Source: an uncultured Oscillospiraceae bacterium (GTDB taxonomy: Bacteria > Bacillota > Clostridia > Oscillospirales > Ruminococcaceae). From it: a stretch of DNA of 62,477 nucleotides. Below the pieces are notes generated by a model, which did no database searches, was not told the origin of the DNA, and saw only the letters and a program-made list of their open reading frames with translations. Location of the stretch: NCBI GenBank assembly GCA_910578965.1, contig CAJTSP010000002.1:1-62477 (forward strand). Direction: 5' to 3'. Positions 1,545-44,171 of this stretch are shown here, piece by piece; the first letter of the stretch is position 1, and each line of letters begins with the position of its first letter. The position numbers and the translations under genes were made by a program.

Positions 1545-2603
1545 CTACCGCCGCCCCTGCTCGTTGACCAAATACCCGTGCATGTCAATCTCCGAGAGGA
1601 CTTCTTTTTTTTGCGGCAATTGTTTTGCTATCGTTTCCAGCCGGTTTTCGTCCATATCGAGCCTGTCCACCTTTGCATATGCGGCAATCAGGTCCAACGG
1701 GCTGACGCCAAATTTCCCTGCACAGCGGTGGACGGCCTGTAAATAACTTGAATGGAAGCCCGCCAGCCCGCACACGGTGTCTATGGGGTCTGTAATGCCG
1801 GAGCCGACAAACCGGGCGACATATTTTTTCCCCAGCAGGAGCAGCTCGCTGACATCCACATCCTCCTTGCCTCTCATTTTCTGGGAAACCGCAATGAGGT
1901 GCTCTGTTACCGTGTTGCCCGCACTGCGCCCCAGCCCCTGCAGGGATGCGTCGATCAGAGAAAAGCCTATCTCAGCGGCGTACAGACTGTTGGACAGCGC
2001 AAGCCCCAAGTTATTATGCCCATGATACCCCAAAGGCAAGGCAGACACGGCCCGGATCTCCTCATAATACCGCAGGATGTCCGCCGGCAGCATGCTGCCG
2101 GCGGAATCCACAAGGTACACGGCGTCTGCACCGTAGCTTTCCGACTTTTTTACCTGCTGCGCAAACTGCGCCGGTTCCATCACATAGGATTTCATGTAAT
2201 TTGCCATAACCATAACGCCCATCTTTTTGCACAGGCGGATGTACGGCTCGGATTTTTCTATCGCGTCCACATTGGTTCCCACGCGCACAAAATCCAGCCC
2301 GGCCGCACACAGGCGTTCCACCTGCTCCAGGCTTGCCACGCCCGGCACGCAAAACATCCCAACCTTTGCTTTGCAAACGGTTTCCTTTGCAGCCTGCAGG
2401 TATTCCATATCCGTATGCAGCGCGGCGCCATAGCGTGGGCCGCTGGCCCCAATCCCCATGCCGTGCCCGATCTCAATATAGGGGATGCCCAGGCGGTCCA
2501 GGCCGCCGCCAATACACTGCACATCCGTATTGGAAAATTGGAAATTGATCTTATAGCTGCCGTCCCGCAGCGTTACATCCATAATTTGAAAATCATTCAT
2601 CAT
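1545..2603 (-). CDS. HMGL-like / DmpG-type (4-hydroxy-2-oxovalerate aldolase-like) pyruvate aldolase
   Basis: N-terminus IMDVTLRDGSY, typical of the pyruvate carboxyltransferase/HMGL TIM barrel. Also HGHNNLGLALSNSL and 352 aa, the DmpG size. Its start overlaps the upstream stop by 11 nt. Confidence 0.8.
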   Translation of the reverse strand: MMNDFQIMDVTLRDGSYKINFQFSNTDVQCIGGGLDRLGIPYIEIGHGMGIGASGPRYGAALHTDMEYLQAAKETVCKAKVGMFCVPGVASLEQVERLCAAGLDFVRVGTNVDAIEKSEPYIRLCKKMGVMVMANYMKSYVMEPAQFAQQVKKSESYGADAVYLVDSAGSMLPADILRYYEEIRAVSALPLGYHGHNNLGLALSNSLYAAEIGFSLIDASLQGLGRSAGNTVTEHLIAVSQKMRGKEDVDVSELLLLGKKYVARFVGSGITDPIDTVCGLAGFHSSYLQAVHRCAGKFGVSPLDLIAAYAKVDRLDMDENRLETIAKQLPQKKEVLSEIDMHGYLVNEQGRR

Positions 2604-3372
2604 CTTCCTCCCGCGTTAAAAAACGGGGCCTTGCTTTCAGGGTTTCGGTAATCAGCTCCAGGTAAGCCGCTGCGGGGAAAGACACGATCTCCCCGCGCCC
2701 CAGCGGCGCAGCGCCAAAAAACGGCTGCCGGCGCACAAGCTTGTCCAGGCGGGTAAAGCAGGGGCCGTCCTGCGGGCGGTCGGTATCGTACACATAATGC
2801 ACGGCATAATCGCGCACCCTTTGCCCGCCCGAGACATACACGCCGTTAAACGCCTTGTTGTACCGGTAAGAAACCTTGTTTTGATGCTCGGCATAATGCA
2901 CGAAGGTAGAGCCGCAATCAAAATTAAAGCAGGCGATCCGGCCGTTTTTAGAGAGGAACTTTTCCCAGAAGCTGCCCGCCCCAAATGCTTCGTGGCTCCA
3001 GCTTTTGGTATAAAAGGCAGCGTTTTCCCCCTCCGCCACCACCGAAAAATTGGGGTCGCCGGAGCGCAGCGCCGCGGGCCTTGCCCGCAGGCCTTCCGGA
3101 AGCATGCCGCACTGCGAAGGCGTTGCGTCCGGGTCAAAAACCGTCCCATGGCAAAAGGAATAGGTAAACGACGGCGCAATCAGGGTCCCTTTGGGCCCAA
3201 CCACCGTTAAAACCGCTTTAATAAAAAGGCTGCACAGCTCCTGCGGGCTGCGAGCCCCCTCCAAACGGCCAAAAAAGCCGAGATTGGAGTGGATAAACAC
3301 ATCCTCACCCGCGCACAGGCCGGCCCCGCGCAACGCCGCCAACAGCTCGTCATAGGTATATACTGCGGCCAT
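2593..3372 (-). CDS. AAC(3)-family (Antibiotic_NAT fold) N-acyltransferase
   Basis: 259 aa. Family-typical N-terminus (LLAALRGAGLCAGEDVFIHSNLGFFG) and FTYSFCHG...FDCGSTFVHYAEH layout. Confidence 0.75.
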   Translation of the reverse strand: MAAVYTYDELLAALRGAGLCAGEDVFIHSNLGFFGRLEGARSPQELCSLFIKAVLTVVGPKGTLIAPSFTYSFCHGTVFDPDATPSQCGMLPEGLRARPAALRSGDPNFSVVAEGENAAFYTKSWSHEAFGAGSFWEKFLSKNGRIACFNFDCGSTFVHYAEHQNKVSYRYNKAFNGVYVSGGQRVRDYAVHYVYDTDRPQDGPCFTRLDKLVRRQPFFGAAPLGRGEIVSFPAAAYLELITETLKARPRFLTREEDDE

Positions 3373-4391: not shown

Positions 4392-5036
4392 TTACTGCAT
4401 ACCGCCGGCCGGCACGGGCCTGCCGACCGAAATGATCTCAGCGATATCGCCATATCCGCTCGCGGCAAACGATATGCGCAGCGCTTTGCCGTTCACGGAC
4501 AGGTCATCGGCCCCGCTCACGGCAAAGCCCTGCTGCAAAAGCTTTTTTTGCAGATCGGCATGGTGGGTCACAATAAACGCCAGCGCCACCGGGCCCTCCT
4601 GGTCCAGCCATGCCTTTTGCCCGCCGCGTCCCTCCAGCAGGCGTATTTTTACGGGCATCCTGTCCAGAGGGCCCTTGCCCGCCAGCAGGGCCGGGTCATC
4701 CTCTGCCGGGCAAAGGCCAAAGTTTTGCCAAAACGCGGCGCTGCCTGCGGCATCCTGAGTAGGTATCCAGATTTCCGCCTCATCCTGGCGGACCGAGAGC
4801 CCCGACAGGCCGCGGCAGGCGTCATATACAACCACCTCAAGCGGGTAGCCCGCCGGGCTGTCCAGCTTAATCAGCTCATGGCTTGCATGCGGCCTTTGAA
4901 ACAGGGGCTGCTTTGCCGCAATATTGGGCAGCCCCTCCTCCGAAAAACGCACGCTGTACCCGCAAAGCCGCTCAAGCGTTTGCCGGCGCTTTTCTGCCGG
5001 GGTTGCAAGCGTGATATGGTCCAGCATAAGGATCAT
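4392..5036 (-). CDS. VOC/glyoxalase-like family protein (weak call)
   Basis: ORF 4392..5054. The MILMLDHITLA N-terminus is typical of VOC-fold proteins. The internal ATG at 5036 forms an ATGA overlap with the ligase stop. Confidence 0.45.
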   Translation of the reverse strand: MILMLDHITLATPAEKRRQTLERLCGYSVRFSEEGLPNIAAKQPLFQRPHASHELIKLDSPAGYPLEVVVYDACRGLSGLSVRQDEAEIWIPTQDAAGSAAFWQNFGLCPAEDDPALLAGKGPLDRMPVKIRLLEGRGGQKAWLDQEGPVALAFIVTHHADLQKKLLQQGFAVSGADDLSVNGKALRISFAASGYGDIAEIISVGRPVPAGGMQ

Positions 5037-6472
5037 GGATGCGTCATCTCCCATTCCTGCCTCAGCCTTGGCTTATCAATTTTCCCGTTGAGGTTCCTGG
5101 GCAGCTCGGGCAGGTTTACCAGCGCATCCAGCCTATATTTACGGCCTAACCGCTGTTCTATGGCGGCGTTTAACGCGCTGCGCTCCAGCCCCGCCGTCTC
5201 GGCGCCCGCAGTCCAGCATACAATTTGCTCATCGCCCCGCCTTGACACGCCAAGCACAACGCACTGCGCAATGCCAAACACGCTTTGCAGGCATTGTTCG
5301 ATATCGTTGGGGTTGATATTGAGGCCCCCCTTGATAATCAGGTCCTTTTTCCGCCCGCAGACGATTAGCTGCTCCGGGGTCCCGTCGATCAGGTCCCCGG
5401 TGTCGTACCATTCCGGCGGGCGGCAAAGCGGCCTGCCACCATTCCAGTACCCCAAAAACATCCACGGCACCCGGAAGCTGGCCTCGCCGTCCGGCAGGCG
5501 CTTCATTTCCACGCCGTTCAAAAGCCGCCCCACCGAATGGTCCCTTGCGGGGCCGGCCGCACACTGGCTGGTCAAAAACAGTGTTTCCGAAAGGCCGTAG
5601 CTCTGGTACAGCCGTATTCCATAGGCCTGTTCAAAATCCTCTCGAAGCCGCGCGTCCAGCGGCGCGGTCCCAACGCTAAAGGTAATTTTGCGGCCCGCAA
5701 GCGCGTCCCGCCCGCTCCTCTGCCGGTCTACGGTAAGGAGCATCCGCAGCATCGCGGGCGCCATCCAAAAGCAGTTTACCCGGTACTCCGCAACCCTTTT
5801 CCAAAAGGGTACTGCCTCCATCACCGAAAACCGGCGTCCCAATACAATGCGGCAGCCAAACAGGAACGGGAGGAAAATCGTATTCAGGATACCGGCCATA
5901 TAGGTCATGGGCATAGCGTGATAGAAGATATCCCCCTGCGCATAGCCAAGCAGCTCCCCAAAGGACAGCGCGCTCGCAATGAGGCTGCGCAAGGAATGCA
6001 CCACCCCCTTGGGCAGGCCCGTACTGCCGGAGGTATAGGTAATGAGATAGGGTTTTTCAAAATCCGTCTGCGCAAACAGCTCCTCCAGCGGCCGGCCGGC
6101 CGGCTTGCCGGGCTGCGCCGCCTGCTGCAGCGCTTTTTTGAGTGCGCAATCCGGCTCGGCGCCCACCAGCTCGGCGTCAGGATGGCAGGCGCGGATCCGT
6201 TCGATCTCCGCAGGGCTCTTTTGCGGGTCCAACGGGATAATCTCCTTGTTTTCCATCGCGCAGGCAAAATACAGCATGCAGAGGGCCGGCGAATTTTCCA
6301 TACAGGCCATGAGCTGGCGCGCCCGCACCGCCCTAACCTGCTCCGCCATTGCCTGCACCCCGCCAAAAAAGTCCTGGTAGGTATAAACAAAGCCATCCTC
6401 CGCCCGGATCAGAAACGGCCCGTCCGCCGCAAGGGAGCGCATATGCCGCTGCCAATACTCTTTTTCTGTCAT
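5033..6472 (-). CDS. AMP-dependent synthetase/ligase (adenylate-forming acyl- or aminoacyl-carrier ligase)
   Basis: YTSGSTGLPKGV (A3 core), YGLSET, GDLID...GRKKDLIIKGG (A8 region). 479 aa. 4-nt overlap with the upstream gene. Confidence 0.9.
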   Translation of the reverse strand: MTEKEYWQRHMRSLAADGPFLIRAEDGFVYTYQDFFGGVQAMAEQVRAVRARQLMACMENSPALCMLYFACAMENKEIIPLDPQKSPAEIERIRACHPDAELVGAEPDCALKKALQQAAQPGKPAGRPLEELFAQTDFEKPYLITYTSGSTGLPKGVVHSLRSLIASALSFGELLGYAQGDIFYHAMPMTYMAGILNTIFLPFLFGCRIVLGRRFSVMEAVPFWKRVAEYRVNCFWMAPAMLRMLLTVDRQRSGRDALAGRKITFSVGTAPLDARLREDFEQAYGIRLYQSYGLSETLFLTSQCAAGPARDHSVGRLLNGVEMKRLPDGEASFRVPWMFLGYWNGGRPLCRPPEWYDTGDLIDGTPEQLIVCGRKKDLIIKGGLNINPNDIEQCLQSVFGIAQCVVLGVSRRGDEQIVCWTAGAETAGLERSALNAAIEQRLGRKYRLDALVNLPELPRNLNGKIDKPRLRQEWEMTHP

Positions 6473-7801: not shown

Positions 7802-9466
7802 TCACCGCAGCAGCCCCTGTGCCGTCAAAATGCTACGGATTTCCCGCTCGCCCCTGCGAAACCTCCATGGGGGGACATAATGCTCTTGGGCCTTCATCTT
7901 GTCATGCCGGCGCTTTATAAGCTTATCCTCGTCGTACAGGTACCGGTGCAGCTCTGCATACAGCAAAAGGGTCTGTCTTTTTATGGCGGCTGCCTCCTGC
8001 CGGCGGGCGGCGTTTTGTTCCTGCCGTTCTTTGCGCCAATCGCCTGTTTCCGCCCGCAGGCCAAGAAGCTCGCCCCGCAGGGCGGCGCAGCGCGCAGGGT
8101 CCTTTTTCAGCAGTGCCGCCATGTATTGTATCTGCCGCTTTCCCCTGCGCAGCCTATGGCGCAGCCGGCGCGGCGCTATGTAGCGCAGCCACCCCCAAAA
8201 ACGGTATCGAAGCCAGTAACGCAGCGGGTTTAACACATGGTTCTGCCAGATATGCTTGCGGAGCATATTGCCTATACGCCAGATCCCGCCCTTATAGTAC
8301 AGCAGATGCGGCGGCACTTCCCAAATTGGGCTGCTGAAGCTGTTATCCTGCAAGGTGTCCTCCAAAAAATCACACACCCGCAGATAGGCGTGCCTGTCTG
8401 CGACATCGTAAAAGGAATTCAGCAGGGCCAGGTCCATCCCATAGCGCTTTTGCACGTCGGGGTCCTGCGCATGGCACAGGGTATACGCAAACTGCTCGTA
8501 GGTTTCAACAAAGCCTGTCCCGGTAAAGATCGGCATCTGGCAGCCATGGGGCATGGGGACCGGCCGCAGCACAAAGGTAGGGGTACCGCTGTATAAAGAT
8601 TCTACTGCCGTTGTGCTGTTCCAGTTATAGACCACATCGCAGGCGCGCAGCCAATGCTTGATAGACTCCTGCGGCAGTACAAAAAAGCCCCGCAGCTCCT
8701 TTTGCATTTCCGCCAGCGCCGGATTCGCCATCTCGGAGGGGTGCGGCCTGTAAATGATCTGGACGGATTCGCCCCCCGGCTCGGACAGGACCCGCTTCGC
8801 CCAGGCCAAAAACATTTGCTGGCTGTCCTCGCTGGCCTGGCGGAACGCGTCGGCAGCAGAATCGCTCATCAAAGGGCTGCGGCTGTTCAGCCTGGGCATA
8901 TTGACAAACACAAAGGAGGATATAAACAGCGCCGTTTTCTTGGCCGGGTCCAACCCATATTTTTCAAACAGCGTTTTCCTCGGGATAAAAAAGCCCCGAA
9001 ATTCCGGCCTGTAAAAATCCAGCGTGACATAGCCCGCCACACAAATATTTTGGGGTTCCACGCCCACTATGTCCGTAAGGCGTGTACAATTTGCCCCCCC
9101 CCAGGCTACATATCGTACGTGGTGCTGCAACACCCCGGAGGCATTCCACTCCGCCTGCGCCCATTGCTCGGCAGATTCGCTTTCCAGCGTGCTGTTCAAA
9201 GGTATCTGTTCCCATTGCAGGTTGACAACCTTTTCAAACGAGCCGACAAAACCCGTAAAGGTCCTGTACACGGTATCCTTATAGCAGGTGGCAATTGCCG
9301 CCACGCGGGTTTTATACCGCGGGTACAGCAAATGGGTGTAGCTGTGCCAAAAGCTCTGATAGGCAACCCGATAGCCGCGGCGCTTTAATTCCGCTCCCAG
9401 CAGGCACAGGTTATCGTATTCCCTGTTTTTCACGTCGTACACAAACAAAAAATCTACTTCCCGCAA
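7802..9466 (-). CDS. surface-carbohydrate biosynthesis protein, GT-B-like (paralog A), with basic coiled-coil C-terminal tail
   Basis: 554 aa, TTG start with GGGAGGCGGG RBS. The N-terminal ~420 aa is collinear with ORF 9579..11225 (DFLFVYDVKNREYDNLCLLGAELKRRGY vs DFLFIYEVKARELENVCLLACELERRGY). The tail is rich in R/K/E/Q heptad-like sequence. Confidence 0.6.
   Translation of the reverse strand: MREVDFLFVYDVKNREYDNLCLLGAELKRRGYRVAYQSFWHSYTHLLYPRYKTRVAAIATCYKDTVYRTFTGFVGSFEKVVNLQWEQIPLNSTLESESAEQWAQAEWNASGVLQHHVRYVAWGGANCTRLTDIVGVEPQNICVAGYVTLDFYRPEFRGFFIPRKTLFEKYGLDPAKKTALFISSFVFVNMPRLNSRSPLMSDSAADAFRQASEDSQQMFLAWAKRVLSEPGGESVQIIYRPHPSEMANPALAEMQKELRGFFVLPQESIKHWLRACDVVYNWNSTTAVESLYSGTPTFVLRPVPMPHGCQMPIFTGTGFVETYEQFAYTLCHAQDPDVQKRYGMDLALLNSFYDVADRHAYLRVCDFLEDTLQDNSFSSPIWEVPPHLLYYKGGIWRIGNMLRKHIWQNHVLNPLRYWLRYRFWGWLRYIAPRRLRHRLRRGKRQIQYMAALLKKDPARCAALRGELLGLRAETGDWRKERQEQNAARRQEAAAIKRQTLLLYAELHRYLYDEDKLIKRRHDKMKAQEHYVPPWRFRRGEREIRSILTAQGLLR
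9094..9102 (-). repeat. homopolymeric G9 (C9 on the plus strand) tract inside CDS 7802..9466
   Basis: The plus strand reads ttgcccccccccagg. On the coding strand TGG GGG GGG GCA encodes WGGA. The paralog has only G6 at the equivalent WGEA position (about 10870). Confidence 0.9.
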
Positions 9467-9578: not shown

Positions 9579-11225
9579 TCAAGTGGCTTCCAAGCACTCC
9601 CGCAGGCGGCTTTTTATCCGCCGGATCTCACGCTGCGACGCGCGATTCAGCCGGTATTTGGAAGCGTCGTACCTTCGTTTCTGCGCCGTATCCCGGTTTT
9701 GCTTTTCGCGGCGCAGCTCGCTGAGCAAACGCTGCTGCATCTGATCAACCTCTGCCTTATCGGCCTGCCAGCGCCTGTTCTCTTCCTGTAGCCTCTGCCC
9801 AAGCTGTTCGTGCTGCCACGCTGCCGCCCGACAGCGTTTTTCCCCTTTTTCACTGCGCCGCAGCCAGCGCCCCACAGGCGTATGCAGGATTGCCAGGCGG
9901 CCTACCCAACTGCCAAAGCGCCAAAAAACAGAATAGGCTTTATATAAGGCCCCGGGCATGCCTTTCGGCCTTGGCGGCCGGGCGGCGCGCAGCCAGACGA
10001 TGGGCCAGTAGCACACACGGTAACGCAGCGTATGCACAAAACGATTTTTCCAGGGGTAGACAACCCGGTACTCCAGCCACATCCGCAGGTATGGTACGTC
10101 GGTATAGGGCGCCGCCGCCGGGCTTTTATAGGCGGGGTCGGCATGGGTTTCCTCCAGCCACCCGCAGATGTTTTGGTAAACGGGCGTTTCGCCGGTATCC
10201 GCATACCACGCGCGCAGGGCCTGCGGCCGGGCTGTGCCCGCCTTTTTTTCACTACCGGCAGCAGAGGCCCGAAAATCCTCGTAGCGGCAGACGGCCGCAC
10301 AACCGGAAAAGATCGGCATATCGCAGGCCTCCGGTAATGCCACCGGCCGCAGCAGGAAGGTGGGCGTACCGCTCTGCCAGGCTTCCGCAGCCGTTGTGCT
10401 GTTCCAGATATACACACGGTCGCAGGCACAGATCCAATGCTTAACGGCCGGCTGCGCAATGCAGAAGAAGCGGGGGATGCGCCGCGCCATCGCCCGGAGC
10501 GCCGGGTTTTCCGCCTCGCTCGGATGCGGGCGGTAGATAAACTGCAGCCCCGGCTCCTCGCAAAGCAGCCGCTCGATCCACTCCAGCACAATCTGCTGCG
10601 TTTGGGCCGAAACGAGCTTTGTCATCTCCTTCCCGTCCTCGTCTGCAACCGCTTCCAGCTTGGGCGGCAGCTTTACATAGGCAAAGGAGGATATGAACAG
10701 GCAGGTTTTTTTGCCGGCGTCCAGCCCTTCCCTTTCAAACAGGCGGCGGCGTGAAACCAGCATCGGGCGGAACATGGGCCGGTAAAAATCCAGCGTGATA
10801 TACCCGGTCACGCGGGTACAGTCCGGCGCTACCCCAAAGCTCTCCACAAGGCGTTTCTGCCCGGCTTCCCCCCAGCAGACATTCCGCACCTGCTTGGCCG
10901 GCCCCTGGTAGGTCCAGGAGGTTACCTGCCGGGAGCGGTAGGAGTAATTGACCGGCACCTGCTCCCACTGGAGGCAGAAAACCTTTTCGTAATGCGCCGC
11001 AAAGCCGGTAAAGAAGCGATAAACCTCCTCGTTATAACAGGCGGACACCACCAGCGTCGTGCAGGAATAGGCAGGCCTGCTCCGCTTTTTCAGCATGGCC
11101 CAGCTATTCAGGATCGCAGTGGAGTAGCCGCGGCGCTCCAGCTCACAGGCCAGCAGGCAGACATTTTCCAGCTCCCGCGCCTTTACCTCATATATAAACA
11201 GGAAATCCACCTTTTGCGGATGCAC
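9579..11225 (-). CDS. surface-carbohydrate biosynthesis protein, GT-B-like (paralog B), with coiled-coil C-terminal tail
   Basis: 548 aa, GTG start with AGGAGGTGG RBS. Paralogous to 7802..9466. C-terminal tail: QHEQLGQRLQEENRRWQADKAEVDQMQQRLLSELRREKQNR. Confidence 0.6.
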   Translation of the reverse strand: MHPQKVDFLFIYEVKARELENVCLLACELERRGYSTAILNSWAMLKKRSRPAYSCTTLVVSACYNEEVYRFFTGFAAHYEKVFCLQWEQVPVNYSYRSRQVTSWTYQGPAKQVRNVCWGEAGQKRLVESFGVAPDCTRVTGYITLDFYRPMFRPMLVSRRRLFEREGLDAGKKTCLFISSFAYVKLPPKLEAVADEDGKEMTKLVSAQTQQIVLEWIERLLCEEPGLQFIYRPHPSEAENPALRAMARRIPRFFCIAQPAVKHWICACDRVYIWNSTTAAEAWQSGTPTFLLRPVALPEACDMPIFSGCAAVCRYEDFRASAAGSEKKAGTARPQALRAWYADTGETPVYQNICGWLEETHADPAYKSPAAAPYTDVPYLRMWLEYRVVYPWKNRFVHTLRYRVCYWPIVWLRAARPPRPKGMPGALYKAYSVFWRFGSWVGRLAILHTPVGRWLRRSEKGEKRCRAAAWQHEQLGQRLQEENRRWQADKAEVDQMQQRLLSELRREKQNRDTAQKRRYDASKYRLNRASQREIRRIKSRLRECLEAT

Positions 11226-11253: not shown

Positions 11254-12648
11254 TTACCGTTTTTTCCGCGCCCGGTATGCCGCCCGGAGCCGGGCGTATG
11301 TTTTTGGCATACAGGCCTTGGCTGCGGAGGCCAGCAGCCCCCTGAGGCCGCCGTACAGCCTTCTGGCGGCCGTCCTTGCCTTGCGGAGGATCACCCGGGC
11401 GGCCTCCTGCGCCATGTAACAGCCTTTTATCCGGTAAAATCCCAGCGATACGGCAAGCGGGCCGCCCGGGCCGGGCCCCGCGCGCTGCCCCACAAGGGCC
11501 CTTAGGTCGCATAAGACCTCTTCCACAAATTTTTCGTAGCTGTATTTCCCGGAGGCTACCACATGTTCATAGCACTGTTCCGCGATTTTTTCACAATAGG
11601 CAGGATCCCGCTCTACCAGATCCATTACCTCGTCCAAATTGGAAAAGTCCTTTTTGATCGGGATATAATCCACATTTGGCTCCAAAACGCCAAAATAATC
11701 GCCCTCCACCAACAACTGGCAGGTATGCGTCATGGCGCATTCAAACACGCGAGGGCCCAATATCCTTGTTTGGATCACGCCTTCCCCGCCCTGGTAGCAG
11801 GCCTGTGCAATTTCCTCCCGCGATGCGCCGGGATGAGCGCGCACATACGCCAGCGTGCGGGCGCGTATCTCCCCATCCGGGTCGAGGATGCTGGAGCCGC
11901 CCAGGCACCCCAGGGCCGCCCGGCAGCGGAGCAGGAAATCAAACCAGGCGCTGCCCGTAATGGTATTGCGGAAGCTGTCCATATAGGTGAGCTTCACATC
12001 CTCCTTGAGGTGCGGATGCTGTGGCAGCCGGGCCCGGAAAGCATTGGCCAGATCGGTTTTTAGCTGGCCGTGGAAGCCAAAGATATAGTTGGCGCTGCCG
12101 GCGCGGTACCCCACGTCAATATCCTTGCGGGGGGATTTTGCCCGCCTTTTTTCCACCCACCTCAGGGTGGCAGGGTCGATGTATCCGGTAAACACCGGAT
12201 GGCACAGGTTTTTTTGCCCCGTCTCCCCCGCAGGAAAGATGACGTCGCAATCGGGCGGGAAGCAACTGGAATATACCCGCTGTACGCCGCAGTCGCGGAT
12301 AAGCGTCCAAAGGGAGCGGGTGTATACGTATTCGTCGTGCGGGATGATTACCTTGACCCCCTGCAGCCCTTGCAGCACCGGCTTGATTCGTTTGTACATC
12401 GCCCAAAAGGACGGCTGGTCAAAGCGCAGCGCAAGGAAGGTATAGTGGAAAATCACCGCGTCAAACGGGATATTGGCCAGGCCCGCCGGTAGCCTGCCCG
12501 TATTTTTGCAGTTGAAGTAGTAGAAGCGGTTCCCCTTGCCGTATCGCCGGAACGAAAACAGATGGTTGTCGTGGGTGCGCACAACGCTGCGCCGGGGCTT
12601 CCAGCAGAGAACCAGGATATTCATCGCCTGCTCATAATGCGGATTCAA
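11254..12648 (-). CDS. glycosyltransferase, CgeB/Glyco_trans_1_2-like C-terminal domain (paralog 1)
   Basis: Collinear with ORF 15840..17150 (FDAVIFHYTFLALRFD, IDVGYRA, LGCLGGSSILDPDGE, FECAMTHTCQLLVEGDY...VDYIPIKKDFSNL). The start is ambiguous: TTG at 12648, or ATG at 12624 (MNILVLCW). Confidence 0.6.
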   Translation of the reverse strand: MNPHYEQAMNILVLCWKPRRSVVRTHDNHLFSFRRYGKGNRFYYFNCKNTGRLPAGLANIPFDAVIFHYTFLALRFDQPSFWAMYKRIKPVLQGLQGVKVIIPHDEYVYTRSLWTLIRDCGVQRVYSSCFPPDCDVIFPAGETGQKNLCHPVFTGYIDPATLRWVEKRRAKSPRKDIDVGYRAGSANYIFGFHGQLKTDLANAFRARLPQHPHLKEDVKLTYMDSFRNTITGSAWFDFLLRCRAALGCLGGSSILDPDGEIRARTLAYVRAHPGASREEIAQACYQGGEGVIQTRILGPRVFECAMTHTCQLLVEGDYFGVLEPNVDYIPIKKDFSNLDEVMDLVERDPAYCEKIAEQCYEHVVASGKYSYEKFVEEVLCDLRALVGQRAGPGPGGPLAVSLGFYRIKGCYMAQEAARVILRKARTAARRLYGGLRGLLASAAKACMPKTYARLRAAYRARKKR

Positions 12649-13417
12649 ACGATCCCCTCAGCTTTCTAAACAGCCGCAGCCCCATCAGCCAGAACAGGCA
12701 GATCCATAGCAGCAGGATCAGCACTCCAAGCAGGTCTGCGTTTTTTTGGTAATACAGGCTGCAGCGGTAAATCTGCACGATCTGATAAAAAGGGTTCAGT
12801 ACAACCAGCGGCTGAAGGAACACGGGGAGCCTCTCGGGGTAATATAGGATCGGCGTAAAGAACATCGTGGTCATCAGCAGCACGCTAAGCACCTGTACAA
12901 TGTCGCGCACAAATACCACAACGGCGCTGACACACAGCCCGATCCCCATAATGAGCAAAAAGGTCAGCGGCACGGCCAGCAGCAGCCACAAAACGTAAAA
13001 GGAAACGCCCAGCCCCGTGGCAACCAGCAGCACGGCGGAAAACACCAGCACAACGCAGATCGACGGAAGCCCCATCATCGAGGCAGCTATCGGGAAATAG
13101 TGCGATTTCACATCAAAGTTTTTCAAAATGGCCCTGTTTGCAACAAGGCTGTTTGCAGAGGACATGATCCCCTCGCTGATAGCCTGCCACGGCCCGTAAC
13201 CGCAGATCAGCCACAGCACGTGCTCCAAAGGGTCCGCGCCGCTGCCGGCAAAAACGAACCCAAACGCAAAGATATACACCCCCATTTGCAGCATGGGGCT
13301 CAGCACTACCCAGGCCCGGCCAATCCGGGTACCGGTAAAGCGCGTGCGGTAGTTCAGCTTCCACAAATTCAAAATCTGTGCCAGCTCCCGCTGCGCAATC
13401 GCTTTCAAACCACTCAT
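12632..13417 (-). CDS. ABC-2 type polysaccharide/teichoic-acid export permease (Wzm/TagG-like)
   Basis: 261 aa with about six hydrophobic segments. ATGA overlap with the upstream ATPase gene. Sits in a glycan-locus context. Confidence 0.85.
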   Translation of the reverse strand: MSGLKAIAQRELAQILNLWKLNYRTRFTGTRIGRAWVVLSPMLQMGVYIFAFGFVFAGSGADPLEHVLWLICGYGPWQAISEGIMSSANSLVANRAILKNFDVKSHYFPIAASMMGLPSICVVLVFSAVLLVATGLGVSFYVLWLLLAVPLTFLLIMGIGLCVSAVVVFVRDIVQVLSVLLMTTMFFTPILYYPERLPVFLQPLVVLNPFYQIVQIYRCSLYYQKNADLLGVLILLLWICLFWLMGLRLFRKLRGSFESAL

Positions 13418-14622
13418 ATGCTTTCCTCTCTGTGCAGCTTTTTCAGCTTAGCGCGGTTATGGTAATACACCTGCGGGCAATCCAGGTAATTGTAATATTG
13501 GTCGTTTACCACCCGGAACAGCGCCGCCCGCTTGGCAAGAAGCACGCCCTTTTGGCGGGCCGCAAGGCTTATCTGATAAGCGCCTGTATTAAAGTTGCAG
13601 TCCTCTATGCGGGTTTCCAGCATTGCGGTGCGTCCCGGCTCCAGTACCAGCCATTGCCCGGTGCTTTCGTGATAGCTGCTTGCAAACAGCAGATACCCCC
13701 GGAGGCTGTAGCAGCTTATCTGCAGGTCGACCTGGTCCAGCGGGGCCTCAGATTGGATTTCCGCTTTCACCCGGATTGCCTGATGGATGCGGATTTCCGC
13801 GCCGGGCTCCCCGTCTTCCCGCAAAACCTGCAGCAGGCCGATACGGACCCGCTCGCCGAAGACGCTGTTTTCGGTTGCTTTTTCCATCTGTGCCAGCATC
13901 TGGCTTTCCTGCTCTTTTTTAACGGAAAGCTCAAACGCCTCGGTCACCCTTGCAGAAGGCCCGTCCATGCGGATACGCCCCTTATCCAGCCAGATGCATC
14001 GGTCCGTGTACTTCCGAATCGTGGACATGGAATGCGACACCATCAGCAGGATTTTCCCCTTCTCGCACAGCTCGCGTGTTTTTGCCTCCGATTTTGCCTT
14101 GAACGCTGCATCCCCCACGCCCAGCACCTCGTCGATCACAAGGATCTCCGGCATCGTAAACAGGATGCAGGCAAAGGACACCTTGGCGATCATGCCGGAG
14201 GAATAAATCTTCATCGGCTGGTCGATGTACTCGCCCAGATCGACAAAATCGATTACCTCCTGGACCCTCCCTGCCAATTCGCTTTCCGGGATACCGGAAA
14301 GGCGGCCGGCCGTCCGGATATTTTCGCGGCCGGTTTCCTCCTGGTTAATGCTGCTGCCTATTTCCATAACCGGCGTTACCTTTCCAGTAACGGCCAACTC
14401 ACCCTCCGTGGCATGGCTGTACCCCGAGAGGATGTTGAGCAGGGTGGATTTTCCCGCGCCGTTGCGCCCGATAATGCCGACACGCTCCCCCTCTTCTATC
14501 CGAAAGCTAATATCCTTGAGGGCCCAGAAATCCGCGCTGCCTTCCTCCTGCCTCCCGAGCCTTAAATACTCTATCGGCGAGGCAAAATAGCGCTTGGAAA
14601 GCCCCCTGCACTCTATATACAT
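13414..14622 (-). CDS. polysaccharide ABC exporter ATP-binding protein (Wzt/TagH-like) with C-terminal beta-rich extension, copy 1
   Basis: Walker A GRNGAGKST, signature YSSGMIAKVSFA, Walker B ILVIDEVL, followed by ~160 extra C-terminal aa. The ATG at 14622 is preceded by AAGGTGGAG (the track ORF extends to 14634). Confidence 0.85.
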   Translation of the reverse strand: MYIECRGLSKRYFASPIEYLRLGRQEEGSADFWALKDISFRIEEGERVGIIGRNGAGKSTLLNILSGYSHATEGELAVTGKVTPVMEIGSSINQEETGRENIRTAGRLSGIPESELAGRVQEVIDFVDLGEYIDQPMKIYSSGMIAKVSFACILFTMPEILVIDEVLGVGDAAFKAKSEAKTRELCEKGKILLMVSHSMSTIRKYTDRCIWLDKGRIRMDGPSARVTEAFELSVKKEQESQMLAQMEKATENSVFGERVRIGLLQVLREDGEPGAEIRIHQAIRVKAEIQSEAPLDQVDLQISCYSLRGYLLFASSYHESTGQWLVLEPGRTAMLETRIEDCNFNTGAYQISLAARQKGVLLAKRAALFRVVNDQYYNYLDCPQVYYHNRAKLKKLHREESI

Positions 14623-15836
14623 ACAACGCTCCACCTTACCTGCTTTTCCAGCAGGGGTTTTTCCTGTTCAAGCATGGCCGGCAGTTCGCCGGCCACATCC
14701 AAACGCATCCAACGCTTTTCGTCATAAATCTTTACAAAAGGGCCCTCCCCGTTTTCCGGCGGGTCCCCAAGGGTCAGCGTGCAAAAATACTCGCCGGGCA
14801 CAAGGTCCGGGTTTTCAAGGGTAATCTGGTAATCATACACGCCCCTGTAGGCAGTAGAAACATTGTTGTCCACCTTGCATATATGGACAATGCCGCCGTG
14901 CTTCTGCCTGCTTTCGATGGAAAAGGCGATGGTCATAATGCGGCTGGGGGGCACGTCGTCTACCCGGAAAGAAAACTCAAAGGTAAAGTTCCCGCCTTTT
15001 GTGTGGGAATAGACGCGCTCGCCCATCCCCTTTTTGTCCAAAAGGGAAATCTGCTGGGCCTTTTGCGCCACGAGGCCCAGATATTCGTTGATCGCCTGAT
15101 AGCTTTTCCCGCAGTAGGTAATGCGCCCGTCCTTGAGATAAAGGCTGTTTTCGCACAGCTTGACAACCGAATCCATATCATGGGTAACAATCACGCCGCT
15201 GGCGCCGTGGCTCAGCAGATGGAACAGGCGTTTCCATGCCTTTCCCTGAAAATATTCATCGCCCACCACCAGTGCCTCGTCGATCAAATAAATATCGGCC
15301 TTCCGGGCGGTGGCCACCGCAAACAGCAGCCGCGCTTTCATGCCCGAGGAATACTCCCGCACCGATTTTTCAAAAAACGGCCCTATCTCGATAAAATCCT
15401 CTATTTCCTCGGTCAGCCGCCGGATTTCGGCCTTTGGCACCTGGAGAAATTCAAAATAATCCCGGCAATATTTGCGTCCCGTAGCATTTGCATCCAAAAA
15501 CACCCCCATCTCAAACAGGGTGGACGGCGTGCTCAGCACCTGCAAAGTGCCTCCCGTAGGCTTATATACGCCGGCCAAAAGCCGCAGCAGCGTGGATTTC
15601 CCCGCACCGTTATGCCCGATAACGCCCAGCAGTTCCCCTTTTTTCACCTGAAAGGTAAGCTCCCGCAAAACCTCGATCTGGCGTGCCTGCCCGCCAAGTA
15701 GCTGCCGCAGCGTTGCGTGCCGCACGTCTGTAAAGCTTTTGCTGAGCCGAACCGCCTGCAGCACCGCGTCCTGCTGCGCCGGCAAAGAAAGGTCTGCTTT
15801 TTGATCCATATTGCCCTCCTTCATCTTCCCCTCCAA
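14613..15836 (-). CDS. polysaccharide ABC exporter ATP-binding protein (Wzt/TagH-like) with a divergent C-terminal extension, copy 2
   Basis: Walker A GHNGAGKST, signature YSSGMKARLLFA, Walker B IYLIDEAL. The C-terminal ~150 aa is unrelated in sequence to copy 1. The start is ambiguous (15836, 15824 or 15809). Confidence 0.85.
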   Translation of the reverse strand: MEGKMKEGNMDQKADLSLPAQQDAVLQAVRLSKSFTDVRHATLRQLLGGQARQIEVLRELTFQVKKGELLGVIGHNGAGKSTLLRLLAGVYKPTGGTLQVLSTPSTLFEMGVFLDANATGRKYCRDYFEFLQVPKAEIRRLTEEIEDFIEIGPFFEKSVREYSSGMKARLLFAVATARKADIYLIDEALVVGDEYFQGKAWKRLFHLLSHGASGVIVTHDMDSVVKLCENSLYLKDGRITYCGKSYQAINEYLGLVAQKAQQISLLDKKGMGERVYSHTKGGNFTFEFSFRVDDVPPSRIMTIAFSIESRQKHGGIVHICKVDNNVSTAYRGVYDYQITLENPDLVPGEYFCTLTLGDPPENGEGPFVKIYDEKRWMRLDVAGELPAMLEQEKPLLEKQVRWSVVCI

Positions 15837-15839
15837 AAG

Positions 15840-17150
15840 CTATAGGTTTCCCGGGTGGCGCCTTTGCCAGAGCTTTTGGTAGAGTGCGGGCGCCGCTTTC
15901 GCCAGCAAAACGGCCAGCCGGTGCCGAAGGTACCGTACCGCCAATACCGCCGTACACCTGCCGTTATTCCACAACAGGGCGGCCTGCAGCGCCAGGCGCC
16001 TCGCCGCGGGCGCCGTCCCGCCGTCCGGGCAGGCGCCCAAAAGGTCTTTGCATATCTTTTGCGCAAAGATACGGTAAGAATACCTGCCCGAGGCCACAAG
16101 ATGCTCATGGCACTGCTCCGCAATCCGTTCGCAGGCCTCTTTATCGCGGATCCGGCCTATAACCTCCTGCAAATTGGAAAAATCCTTTCGTATCGGGATA
16201 TAATCGATCCCTGCGGTTAGGATACCCTGGTAATCGTCCTCAACCAAAATCTGGCAGGTACGTGTCATGGCGCATTCAAAAATTTTGGGGCCAAAGAGAT
16301 GAGATTGTATCCTGCCGTCCTGCCCCGGATAGCAGGCCTGCTCCACCTCGTGATAGGAGGCATCCGGATGGGTCAGCATATATTCCGCGGCGCGCCGCCG
16401 CAGCTCCCCGTCGGGATCCATGAGGCTGGAGCCTCCCAGGCAGCCGATGGCCGTCCTGCAGTTGCACAGGTAGCGAAGCCAGCGGCTGCCCACAATGGTA
16501 TTTACATAGCCGGCGCCGGTCATCTGGATGTCGGTTACCAGGTCCGGGCAGGCGTCAAGCGCCCTGCGCATTTCCAGCGCGACCCGCGTTTTGAGATAGC
16601 CGTGCAGCCCAAAGGCGTAATCCGACCGGAGCGCCCGGTACCCCACATCGATCCGCCGCCTGCCGTAGCTTTTGCGGCGCAGCTTTTTCTCCTGCGTTTC
16701 CTCCACATAGCCCGGCAGCACGGTGCTGCACAGGTTATGCTTGCCGGTTTGGGCATAGGGGAACAGCGTTTCATAATCTTTGGGATAGCAGGTGGCGTAT
16801 ACATGCGCGACATCCAAATCCCGGATCATACGCCAAAGCGCTCTTGTAAACACATATTCATCATGCACAAGAAACACTTTATACCCGCACAGGCGTCTCA
16901 GGGCGGGGAGCAGCCGCTCATACTGCTCCTGGAAATCCCGGTCAAAGCGCGTTGCCAAAAAAGTATAATGAAAAATCACCGCATCAAAGGGATATTGCAG
17001 CACGGGCCCTCCCAGCGAGGCCGGCCCCTGCACATCCAAATAAGTAAACCGGCAGTTTTCCCCATATCGCTTAAAGGCATACAGGTGATCCCGGATGGTG
17101 GCCCGGTCTATCAGCCTAAACCTGCGGTAGATTATCAATACGTCCATCAA
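15840..17150 (-). CDS. glycosyltransferase, CgeB/Glyco_trans_1_2-like C-terminal domain (paralog 2)
   Basis: See 11254..12648. ATGA overlap with the upstream GT4 gene. Confidence 0.6.
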   Translation of the reverse strand: MMDVLIIYRRFRLIDRATIRDHLYAFKRYGENCRFTYLDVQGPASLGGPVLQYPFDAVIFHYTFLATRFDRDFQEQYERLLPALRRLCGYKVFLVHDEYVFTRALWRMIRDLDVAHVYATCYPKDYETLFPYAQTGKHNLCSTVLPGYVEETQEKKLRRKSYGRRRIDVGYRALRSDYAFGLHGYLKTRVALEMRRALDACPDLVTDIQMTGAGYVNTIVGSRWLRYLCNCRTAIGCLGGSSLMDPDGELRRRAAEYMLTHPDASYHEVEQACYPGQDGRIQSHLFGPKIFECAMTRTCQILVEDDYQGILTAGIDYIPIRKDFSNLQEVIGRIRDKEACERIAEQCHEHLVASGRYSYRIFAQKICKDLLGACPDGGTAPAARRLALQAALLWNNGRCTAVLAVRYLRHRLAVLLAKAAPALYQKLWQRRHPGNL

Positions 17151-43163: not shown

Positions 43164-44171
43164 CTATGCCCGCTTATTTTGCCGCGCACAGAGCAACACA
43201 TACCCGGCAAACCATACAATCCCATGAACCGTTAAAATACCCGCGGCCTTTGCCGCCTCTGCCGTATCCCCCCAAGATAGGGCCAGAATCCCTGCAAAGG
43301 CGGGCTGAGAAGGGACGATATTGCAAAGGACCGCCAGCGGCCCGCTCACCCCGGCCAGGGTGCATACGATCGGTACTGCGATAAACACAAGCATAACGAT
43401 CTTGATACAGGCCACGCCGGTCATCAGCCCCTCAGAGAGCCTGCCGATGAACAGGCCAATCAGCGCCGCCACAAAGGAGGACGGAACGACCAGCGCCAAT
43501 ATAATCCCAAAGCCCCGCCAGGACCATTGGAAGCAGATGCACGCCGTCACAACAGACGACAGGCCCCCAAAGAAAAATCCCACCGCGATTTTCTGCAAAA
43601 CATACCGCCCGGGCGTCATGGGCAAAATCTCGTTGATAAAGGCCACACCGTCCTCTTTTTCGGATATGATATTCATGGCGTTGAAGGTACAGCCCATGAA
43701 CATGGCCACCATCAGTACAGCGGGGATAAAAATGCCTTGGAGGCTTTTTAAAATGTCCGGGCGCTCCAGTGTCAACACTTCCGCCCGCCCCGCCGCTTCC
43801 CGCCGCTCATAGAGGGCAGGGAGAGTGGCTGCCGCCTGCCGGAAAATTTCCAGCTCATCCCCGCTGACCGAAGTTTTGAGGCTGTCCCCGTCCGCCTGCA
43901 CGCCAATGACATTGGTAGATGGCTCTTTGACCGCATCGGCCAGTTCCTTCTGGGTCGCATACGCTGTTACCGGGCCGTATCGCTCCAGCCATGCAACCGC
44001 CTGCGGGGGCAGGTCGTTTTCCAGCACGCCAAAGTGCAGCTCGCCCAGGCTGGACAGATCAATGGAACCCATAAAATTCAATGCCACGGCAACCAGGATG
44101 GGCAGCAGGAAGGTCATCAGGCAGAACTTATCCCGCAGGACACTTTTTAGCTGATATTGTAAGCCCTTCAC
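43164..44171 (-). CDS. ABC-2 family transporter permease
   Basis: 335 aa. N-terminal TM, a large loop, then a cluster of C-terminal TMs. Confidence 0.7.
   Translation of the reverse strand: MKGLQYQLKSVLRDKFCLMTFLLPILVAVALNFMGSIDLSSLGELHFGVLENDLPPQAVAWLERYGPVTAYATQKELADAVKEPSTNVIGVQADGDSLKTSVSGDELEIFRQAAATLPALYERREAAGRAEVLTLERPDILKSLQGIFIPAVLMVAMFMGCTFNAMNIISEKEDGVAFINEILPMTPGRYVLQKIAVGFFFGGLSSVVTACICFQWSWRGFGIILALVVPSSFVAALIGLFIGRLSEGLMTGVACIKIVMLVFIAVPIVCTLAGVSGPLAVLCNIVPSQPAFAGILALSWGDTAEAAKAAGILTVHGIVWFAGYVLLCARQNKRA

Follow-up and report, generated by a model that had tools for sequence, protein, structure and literature searches.

A co-inherited pair of unlike Wzt-type ATPases beside a single Wzm permease in an Oscillospiraceae genome: a probable heterodimeric motor for glycan export

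The DNA analysed here is a stretch of 62,477 nucleotides (nt) from an uncultured Oscillospiraceae bacterium (GenBank assembly GCA_910578965.1, contig CAJTSP010000002.1, positions 1 to 62,477), hereafter called the window. It contains an ATP-binding cassette (ABC) permease gene of the ABC-2 family, wzm, which is preceded by two genes encoding ATPases of the Wzt type, WztA and WztB. Analysis of open reading frames (ORFs) and Pfam matches places the three genes head to tail and co-directionally on the minus strand. A reading of the DNA letters made without database searches (the sequence-only reading) had described one permease preceded by two ATPase genes of 402 and about 400 amino acids (aa) that overlap by about 10 nt. 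Coordinates and Pfam matches bear out this layout, with an overlap measured at 10 nt and products of 402 aa for WztB and, from the likely ATG, 398 aa for WztA. The peptides cited in that reading are likewise present in the proteins to which it assigned them. The features of the trio, including the nucleotide-binding domains (NBDs) and putative carbohydrate-binding domains (CBDs) of the ATPases, are as follows.

14613..15836, minus strand: WztA, an A-type Wzt ATPase; longest ORF of 407 aa from TTG 15836
ATG 15809, minus strand: probable start of WztA, behind a perfect AAGGAGG; 398 aa, the product length on record
About 15767-15081, minus strand: WztA NBD (PF00005, 73.8 bits)
About 15050-14616, minus strand: diverged, putative Wzt-type CBD of WztA (hhalign probability of 98.3% to CBDs of solo Wzt proteins)
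14613..14622, minus strand: 10-nt overlap of WztA and WztB (WztA stop TAG 14615-14613, WztB ATG 14622-14620)
13414..14634, minus strand: WztB, a B-type, canonical-like Wzt ATPase (open frame)
ATG 14622, minus strand: probable start of WztB, behind AAGGTGGAG; 402 aa
About 14622-13933, minus strand: WztB NBD (PF00005, 78.3 bits)
Residues 223-251 of WztB: long hinge/linker helix in the predicted model
About 13848-13507, minus strand: Wzt_C CBD of WztB (PF14524, 31.4 bits, cut-off 30.4)
12632..13417, minus strand: Wzm, ABC-2 permease of 261 aa with about six transmembrane segments (PF01061, 56.2 bits, cut-off 26.9; weak match to the galactan Wzm model NF050109)

The genes are tightly packed. The good Shine-Dalgarno sequence of WztB sits inside the 3' end of WztA, and the 10-nt junction suggests translational coupling of the two ATPases; the stop of WztB and the start of Wzm overlap by 4 nt (ATGA). 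In the gene calls of ten related loci of the survey described below (L001, L003, L005, L087, L088, L089 and L208-L211), the junction between the two ATPase genes is an overlap of 4-31 nt or a 1-nt gap. The genome from which the window comes (2.79 Mb, 94.5% complete) holds three ABC-2 permeases of the Wzm type and four ATPases of the Wzt/TagH type. Because its other two systems pair permease and ATPase one to one, leaving no spare permease, the extra ATPase is assigned to the WztA/WztB locus. Those two systems lie outside the window (G000:C68:10019-11586 and G000:C25:6674-8155), and one of them has a TagH-like ATPase with an open frame of 754 aa and a long C-terminal part. The organism would appear to export at least three polymers by the Wzm/TagG-type route.

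Both WztA and WztB have an intact Walker A, YSSGM signature, Walker B D-E, D-loop and H-loop His; for Walker A, signature and Walker B this had already been stated in the sequence-only reading, and the motif alignment agrees. Inactivating changes in one copy had been named beforehand as evidence that would speak against that reading. They were looked for and none was found in either family, the catalytic residues being invariant across 102 A-type sequences and, in the A and B families alike, across 39 pairs. By NCBIfam and by PDB sequence search, both NBDs belong to the Wzt/TagH/RfbE subfamily; the PDB entries closest to them in sequence are those of TarH, Wzt and RfbE (E 1e-35 to 1e-46). The ratio of nonsynonymous to synonymous substitution rates (dN/dS), calculated against the near relative L001, is 0.13 for WztA, 0.087 for WztB and 0.061 for Wzm. 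Degeneration of one ATPase copy is ruled out by the invariant catalytic residues of both families and by these ratios (0.09-0.13). Recent tandem duplication is ruled out as well, since the NBDs of WztA and WztB are 32% identical, their CBDs about 10% identical, and the two fall into separate, deeply split clades.

The C-terminal domains (CTDs) were described in the sequence-only reading as not resembling each other. At the level of BLASTP, which detects no similarity between them, this stands; the further claim that they are unrelated does not. Pfam Wzt_C is reached by WztB only, barely above the cut-off; WztA has no Pfam Wzt_C match, and some of its A-type relatives bear a direct call to that family (PF14524). 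In profile comparisons by hhalign, the WztA CTD matches the CBDs of 51 solo Wzt proteins with a probability of 98.3% (E 1e-14) and the WztB CTD matches the same set equally well (98.3%, E 2e-14). The two CTDs match each other with a probability of 92.8% (E 4e-7, 80 columns, 10% identity), and a strand of the form L-x-P/T-G-x-Y is common to both in that alignment. Structure prediction, which had been proposed as a check, gave the same answer. In the AlphaFold model of WztA, made from a 102-sequence alignment (predicted local distance difference test, pLDDT, 88.5), residues ~254-373 fold as an all-beta domain; in that of WztB (pLDDT 84.3), a helix of 29 residues precedes a beta domain that spans residues 259-372. 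The best fold matches of both models are full-length chains of Aquifex aeolicus Wzt (8DNE, 8DKU, 7K2T), over about 400 columns that take in both NBD and CBD, with E values of 1e-29 to 1e-30 for WztA and 1e-35 to 6e-37 for WztB, better than those of NBD-only chains. Unrelated C-terminal domains are ruled out by the hhalign and fold matches, and both CTDs are best regarded as very diverged, homologous carbohydrate-binding sandwiches of the Wzt type.

That the CTDs might prove homologous and redundant had also been named in advance as evidence against the sequence-only reading. They are homologous, but they are not redundant: each CTD is kept in its own orthologous line by purifying selection (dN/dS against L001, CTDs alone, 0.19 for WztA and 0.16 for WztB). 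The CTDs diverge at similar rates, with identities in distant pairs of 23% (A) and 20% (B), and the residues of the CBD pocket are not conserved between systems. A division in which the CBD of A is a conserved scaffold and that of B a variable specificity domain finds no support in identities so alike. Two competent ATPases, each with its own CBD and with so little identity between the CBDs, could nevertheless belong to two alternative homodimeric exporters, Wzm2-A2 and Wzm2-B2, which share the permease and in which each CBD reads a differently terminated polymer. This was the preferred explanation of the sequence-only reading, and the fast evolution of both CTDs is as would be expected for specificity domains. 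The distribution of the two genes, set out below, argues against it.

Conservation of the double-Wzt arrangement, another check that had been proposed, was surveyed in 41 distinct A-type loci, window included (L190 is the same record as L088). The A-type relatives are a distinct group of ~385-aa proteins. The near relatives L001-L004 have identities to the window of 85% and 63%, and the distant loci L005-L009 and L087-L089 (36-41% identity) come from Lachnospiraceae and Deltaproteobacteria metagenome-assembled genomes (MAGs), Achromobacter xylosoxidans and Dechloromonas. A further 31 loci (L171-L201) were retrieved using the Achromobacter A protein as query; their hosts include Bordetella pseudohinzii, Burkholderia multivorans (L174), Trinickia, Cupriavidus, Polaromonas, Accumulibacter, four Legionella species, Methylococcaceae, Nitrospirae, Bacteriovoracaceae and an uncultured Clostridia MAG. 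Overall, A-type genes occur in Clostridia, in Beta-, Gamma- and Deltaproteobacteria including Legionella, and in the Bordetella bronchiseptica-type wbm locus (L208).

The arrangement is conserved. A B-type gene is present in all 41 A-type loci and lies directly downstream of the A-type gene in 39 of them. Look-ups begun from the other side, with WztB as query, found A-B-Wzm with an A-type gene upstream in three loci out of three. In most loci the gene right after B is that for Wzm; L007 is different in that Wzm is encoded ~17 kb upstream, on the contig that also carries the pair. For control, Walker-type patterns were used to retrieve 80 generic Wzt loci. None of these contains an A-type gene; 79 of the 80 have just one ATPase, and where a permease was detected the ATPase usually comes right behind it. 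The rule of one ATPase gene per permease, characteristic of Wzm-Wzt exporters, does not hold for the window or for any of the 41 A-type loci. At E<=1e-45 no other A-type protein was found in 400 genomes of the window's phylum, which, with four candidates scored per genome, is weak evidence of rarity.

Some loci deviate from the common layouts. In Legionella septentrionalis (L189:5146-6669), the sole locus with A and B apart, B lies ~1.5 kb downstream. In L177, a B-type NBD fragment stands on the opposite strand directly after the A-type gene, at the end of a MAG contig (5154-5537), which is possibly a real inversion or an assembly artefact. A Pyrinomonadaceae MAG in the control set (L110) has two B-like or solo-type Wzt genes (1787-3247 and 4845-6122), 1.6 kb apart and without an A-type gene; this may be a two-Wzt arrangement of another, independent kind.

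The pair occurs in loci of quite different sugar chemistry, some of which have a single copy of the downstream gene called P4-like below and a single transferase set. Since the pair is kept in 41 of 41 loci, alternative exporters would need two glycoforms in every host, and neither type of ATPase has been found alone. The overlapping genes, which suggest equimolar synthesis, also fit poorly with two exporters used in turn.

The phylogeny points in the same direction. In an NBD tree of 128 sequences (IQ-TREE quick mode, LG+G4), all 27 A-type rows form one clade on a long stem, with a support of 97 in the SH-like approximate likelihood-ratio test (SH-aLRT). All 16 B partners form another (SH-aLRT 99) that contains none of the 81 solo Wzt proteins, an exclusion that further disfavours independent B2 exporters. 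The long TagH proteins of Bacilli fall outside both clades. Internal branching of the A and B clades agrees pair by pair. Pairwise identities of A and B among 15 pairs are correlated at r = 0.92 for NBDs and r = 0.91 for CTDs, and the Mantel correlation is 0.968 for 39 pairs (0 of 5000 permutations as high) and 0.961 for 34 non-redundant pairs. As judged from these trees, A and B have been inherited and transferred as a unit, and the pair is an ancient, co-inherited module and not a local duplication.

Within the module, A and B differ from each other in fixed ways. The spacing between the hinge aromatic and the core CBD strand is 27-34 residues in A and 49-52 in B, against a median of 48 (interquartile range 45-50) in solo Wzt, and the spacing of B exceeds that of A by 16-24 residues in 39 of 39 pairs. 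The linker between NBD and CBD is therefore ~20 residues shorter in A and canonical in B, and A is the derived partner, the one that has been shortened. The Asn of the TGxEN/ENI motif, a region that meets the coupling helix of the permease in ABC transporters, is Tyr or Phe in all 39 A proteins, whereas it is Asn in 38 of 39 B and in 81 of 81 solo Wzt. Conversely, the Q-loop Glu, which in the Wzt subfamily stands in place of the usual Gln, is kept in 39 of 39 A, replaced by Thr in 31 of 39 B and present in 68 of 81 solo Wzt. At the position of the conserved hinge aromatic, every A-type sequence has Tyr, and B sequences have either Tyr or Phe. The window shows the marks of both types: WztA falls in the A clade, has TGRKY and a hinge-to-CBD spacing of 32 residues, and WztB falls in the B-partner clade, has a spacing of 50 residues and overlaps A by the 10 nt given above. 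These differences look like lineage-wide, complementary specializations, as in subunits that work as a fixed pair. A fixed short linker in A, a canonical one in B and reciprocal motif changes are hard to explain for independent, symmetric homodimers, and on all of this evidence we consider two alternative exporters improbable.

The derived character of A could be explained in another way. If only B formed the transporter (B2-Wzm2), A might be an accessory, CBD-bearing ATPase that acts at an earlier step, for instance holding the chain while it grows or once it is capped, or coupling export to the P4-like polymerase or terminator, or it might regulate B. The long stem branch of A, its shortened linker and the replaced Asn of its ENI motif would suit such a role, as would the P4-like protein that accompanies the module in most loci. 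However, the signature motif and D-loop are invariant in A, and these are relevant only in an NBD sandwich dimer. Moreover, the nearest structural matches of A are transporter-bound Wzt chains, A has no membrane or polymerase-binding domain, and a soluble A2 ATPase with a Wzt CBD has no known precedent. An accessory A is in our view quite improbable.

The explanation that best accommodates these observations is a single exporter, Wzm2-WztA-WztB, to which WztA and WztB contribute as unlike ATPase subunits; they probably form an obligate heterodimer on Wzm2. The sequence-only reading had offered a heterodimeric ATPase as the other of its two options. It is this option that is favoured by the strict co-occurrence, the mirrored trees and the fixed asymmetries, whereas the alternative exporters that it preferred are poorly supported. 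In such a heterodimer, for which we infer physical association of A with B and a 2:1:1 stoichiometry, each subunit would contribute a competent NBD and its own Wzt-type CBD, and the two CBDs would themselves pair as a heterodimer.

Several considerations weigh against this explanation. Co-inheritance and co-phylogeny are expected for any tightly linked operon pair; they speak for a shared unit and do not imply contact. Common descent and transfer connect the loci, so that the counts overstate their independence. The WztB of the window keeps the Q-loop Glu and both ATP sites look canonical, so that the window lacks the degenerate site by which many ABC heterodimers are recognized. Among type V (ABC-2) exporters we know of no precedent for a symmetric Wzm2 with two unlike ATPases, and the case for an A-B complex is built from sequence comparison and single-chain models.

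A structural rationale is suggested by the homodimeric WzmWzt of A. aeolicus, in which only one of the NBDs bears the CBD dimer, and the dimer straddles the hinge helix of that NBD (Spellmon et al. 2022, PMC9445017). One NBD-CBD linker is a folded hairpin and the other is extended over about 24 Å, and the O-antigen cap is bound by one CBD only, together with the hinge helix of that NBD (PMC9445017). An assignment of the paper's 'Tyr233' to an alignment column was rejected, as the PDB SEQRES numbering seems to be offset by one (E167 against index 168). By analogy, the A/B pair looks like a genetic fixation of the linker asymmetry of the homodimer: what A. aeolicus Wzt achieves conformationally would be encoded in two genes, A with its linker ~20 residues shorter and altered ENI motif, and B with its canonical linker. 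It is, in our judgement, an evenly balanced proposition that A/B is a hard-wired asymmetric Wzt and that this glycan exporter, with labour divided between the subunits, is the first of type V (ABC-2) in which a heterodimeric motor is mounted on a symmetric channel. A, with its short linker, invariant hinge Tyr and altered, permease-facing ENI motif, would then carry the two paired CBDs and provide the one site at which the cap is read. B, with its long canonical linker and often a Thr in the Q-loop, would reach across and supply a second, possibly slower, ATP site.

The neighbouring genes bear on the cargo and on the origin of the pair. Those most relevant to the module are listed below.

11254..12648, minus strand: P4, 464 aa, directly after Wzm; unnamed family with sub-threshold GT-B-like matches only
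15840..17150, minus strand: P5, 436 aa, a paralogue of P4, directly upstream of WztA
7802-9466 and 9579-11225: ~550-aa TIGR04396 'surface carbohydrate biosynthesis' paralogues, 36% identical, with long basic C-terminal tails
L009:9147-10604, L089:10134-11429, L087:9843-12728 and L208:12388-17458: P4-like copies in other loci, that of L208 comprising two larger downstream proteins

The locus further encodes GT2, GT4 and DUF4422 transferases, a PseB-like dehydratase, a DegT aminotransferase and an acyl-tailoring cassette, in addition to the two TIGR04396-family paralogues. Elsewhere in the window, positions 43380-43739 give a weak ABC2_membrane match (22 bits, below cut-off) that belongs to a second, unrelated ABC-2 system. 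Neither LpxC nor Omp85/BamA was found in the host genome (94.5% complete) while two LCP-family ligases are present, and the host is accordingly predicted to be a monoderm because of this combination. A lipid-linked wall glycopolymer is a likelier cargo than the O antigen of a lipopolysaccharide (LPS), and the likeliest overall. The exporter would move this finished polymer across the single membrane of a Gram-positive-type host.

P4 and P5 are 49% identical. No family above threshold and no PDB sequence match was found for either, and naming the family was not possible from the sub-threshold Glyco_trans_1_2 and GT90 matches. A P4-like protein or domain is found downstream of A-B-Wzm in L009, L089, L087, L088, L005 and L208. 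For L171-L201 the flank available was 4 kb, which limited detection; at least 20 of these 31 loci have a P4-like protein or domain after the module. BLAST found no P4-like gene in L007 or L008 within the fetched flanks and none in the 80 generic Wzt loci. The P4/P5 family is a candidate polymerase or chain terminator specific to the A-B-Wzm type of transporter.

The paralogous pairs of the window, P4 with P5 and the two 550-aa proteins, could make or terminate two products, which would suit alternative exporters, and the sequence-only reading had linked the ATPase pair to the other duplications of the locus. That link fails. Among the loci compared, a second P4-like copy adjoining the module (P5) is confined to the window and to L001-L004, which are its nearest relatives, so the A/B pair is not tied to the P4/P5 duplication; in L009 and L089 the pair is accompanied by just one P4-like gene. 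Similarly, in L003 the counterpart of the 7802-9466 paralogue is broken into separate ORFs of 227 and 337 aa, and this lineage, without an intact second 550-aa paralogue, still has the A/B pair.

The polymers exported by Wzm-Wzt transporters include O antigens, teichoic-acid-like polymers, mycobacterial galactan and S-layer glycans, and the transporters are targets for drugs and vaccines. To our knowledge, all those solved or studied contain a homodimer of one Wzt. If the heterodimer proposed here is correct, two roles that are superimposed in the homodimer would be genetically separated, each mutable independently. Such a two-subunit version would allow ATP sites, linkers and binding domains to be dissected one gene at a time, which is impossible in a homodimer. 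Annotation of such loci would also change, as two 'wzt' genes would not be a redundancy. The module is found in O-antigen loci of Bordetella, Achromobacter, Burkholderia and Legionella and in gut Clostridia, and the window adds a member from a Gram-positive-type host to the A-B-Wzm family. In the open-access literature, no paper analysing a heteromeric Wzt was found, nor was a functional study of the A-B-Wzm version, which is annotated in well-known loci such as that of Bordetella.

Among known systems, WzmWzt of A. aeolicus (7K2T, 8DKU, 8DNE, 8DL0) resembles the window in having an ABC-2 permease and a Wzt with NBD, hinge helix and beta-sandwich CBD, and its Wzt shares the YSSGM signature and Glu-type Q-loop of the window ATPases. 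It differs in having one Wzt gene and a homodimer, whereas the window has two anciently diverged Wzt proteins (32% NBD and ~10% CBD identity). Its cargo is an O antigen, which the trio of the window would not export, its host being an apparent monoderm and so having no LPS O antigen. Gene order also differs, with ATPase-ATPase-permease in the window and permease-ATPase in the usual Wzm-Wzt loci.

The B. bronchiseptica-type wbm locus (L208) is closer in layout, with A (389 aa), an overlapping B (402 aa), Wzm (263 aa) and two proteins with P4-like domains; B. pseudohinzii has the same layout. Between the window and Bordetella, the NBDs are about 41% (A) and about 45% (B) identical. The sugar pathway around the module differs, being that of a 2,3-diacetamido uronic acid in Bordetella. 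The hosts differ too, that of the window being of Gram-positive type. The genes wbmL, wbmM and wbmN are described as those that together 'comprise' the Bordetella O-antigen ABC transporter (PMC3849452, citing Preston et al. 1999). Another account summarizes the transporter genes as 'wzm and wzt components', a summary that does not address two unlike ATPases (PMC2615507, likewise citing Preston et al. 1999). The trio of L208 sits in a cluster of WbmS-like, formyltransferase and Asn-synthase genes, and wbmL, wbmM and wbmN would, as a set, correspond to it; the protein named from B. bronchiseptica is A-type. Elsewhere, an O-antigen cluster with two wzt and one wzm was noted in passing in 2012 (PMC3541218). 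It is likened to the window by description only, and its locus tags put wzm between the two wzt, unlike the window. Two wzt are also mentioned for a Massilia genome (PMC9834719).

The TagGH/TarGH transporters (6JBH, 7DD0, 9CFL) resemble the window in NBD subfamily (126-161 bits), in their ABC-2 permease, and in exporting a lipid-linked wall polymer in monoderms. TarH, however, lacks a Wzt_C CBD and is a homodimer from one ATPase gene, whereas both window ATPases carry CBDs. The NCBIfam TagH models score far below their cut-offs on the window ATPases, no Pfam match to a teichoic-acid polymerase was found in the genes neighbouring the trio, and the trio falls outside the TagGH/TarGH class.

For the motor itself, the nearest parallels are EcfA/EcfA' of the energy-coupling factor (ECF) transporters and OppD/OppF, in which adjacent, co-inherited genes for two canonical NBDs give one heterodimeric motor. 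These systems are importers with non-identical membrane partners. Unlike them, the trio of the window would combine a presumably symmetric Wzm2 with an unlike pair of ATPases, each NBD bearing its own substrate-reading domain.

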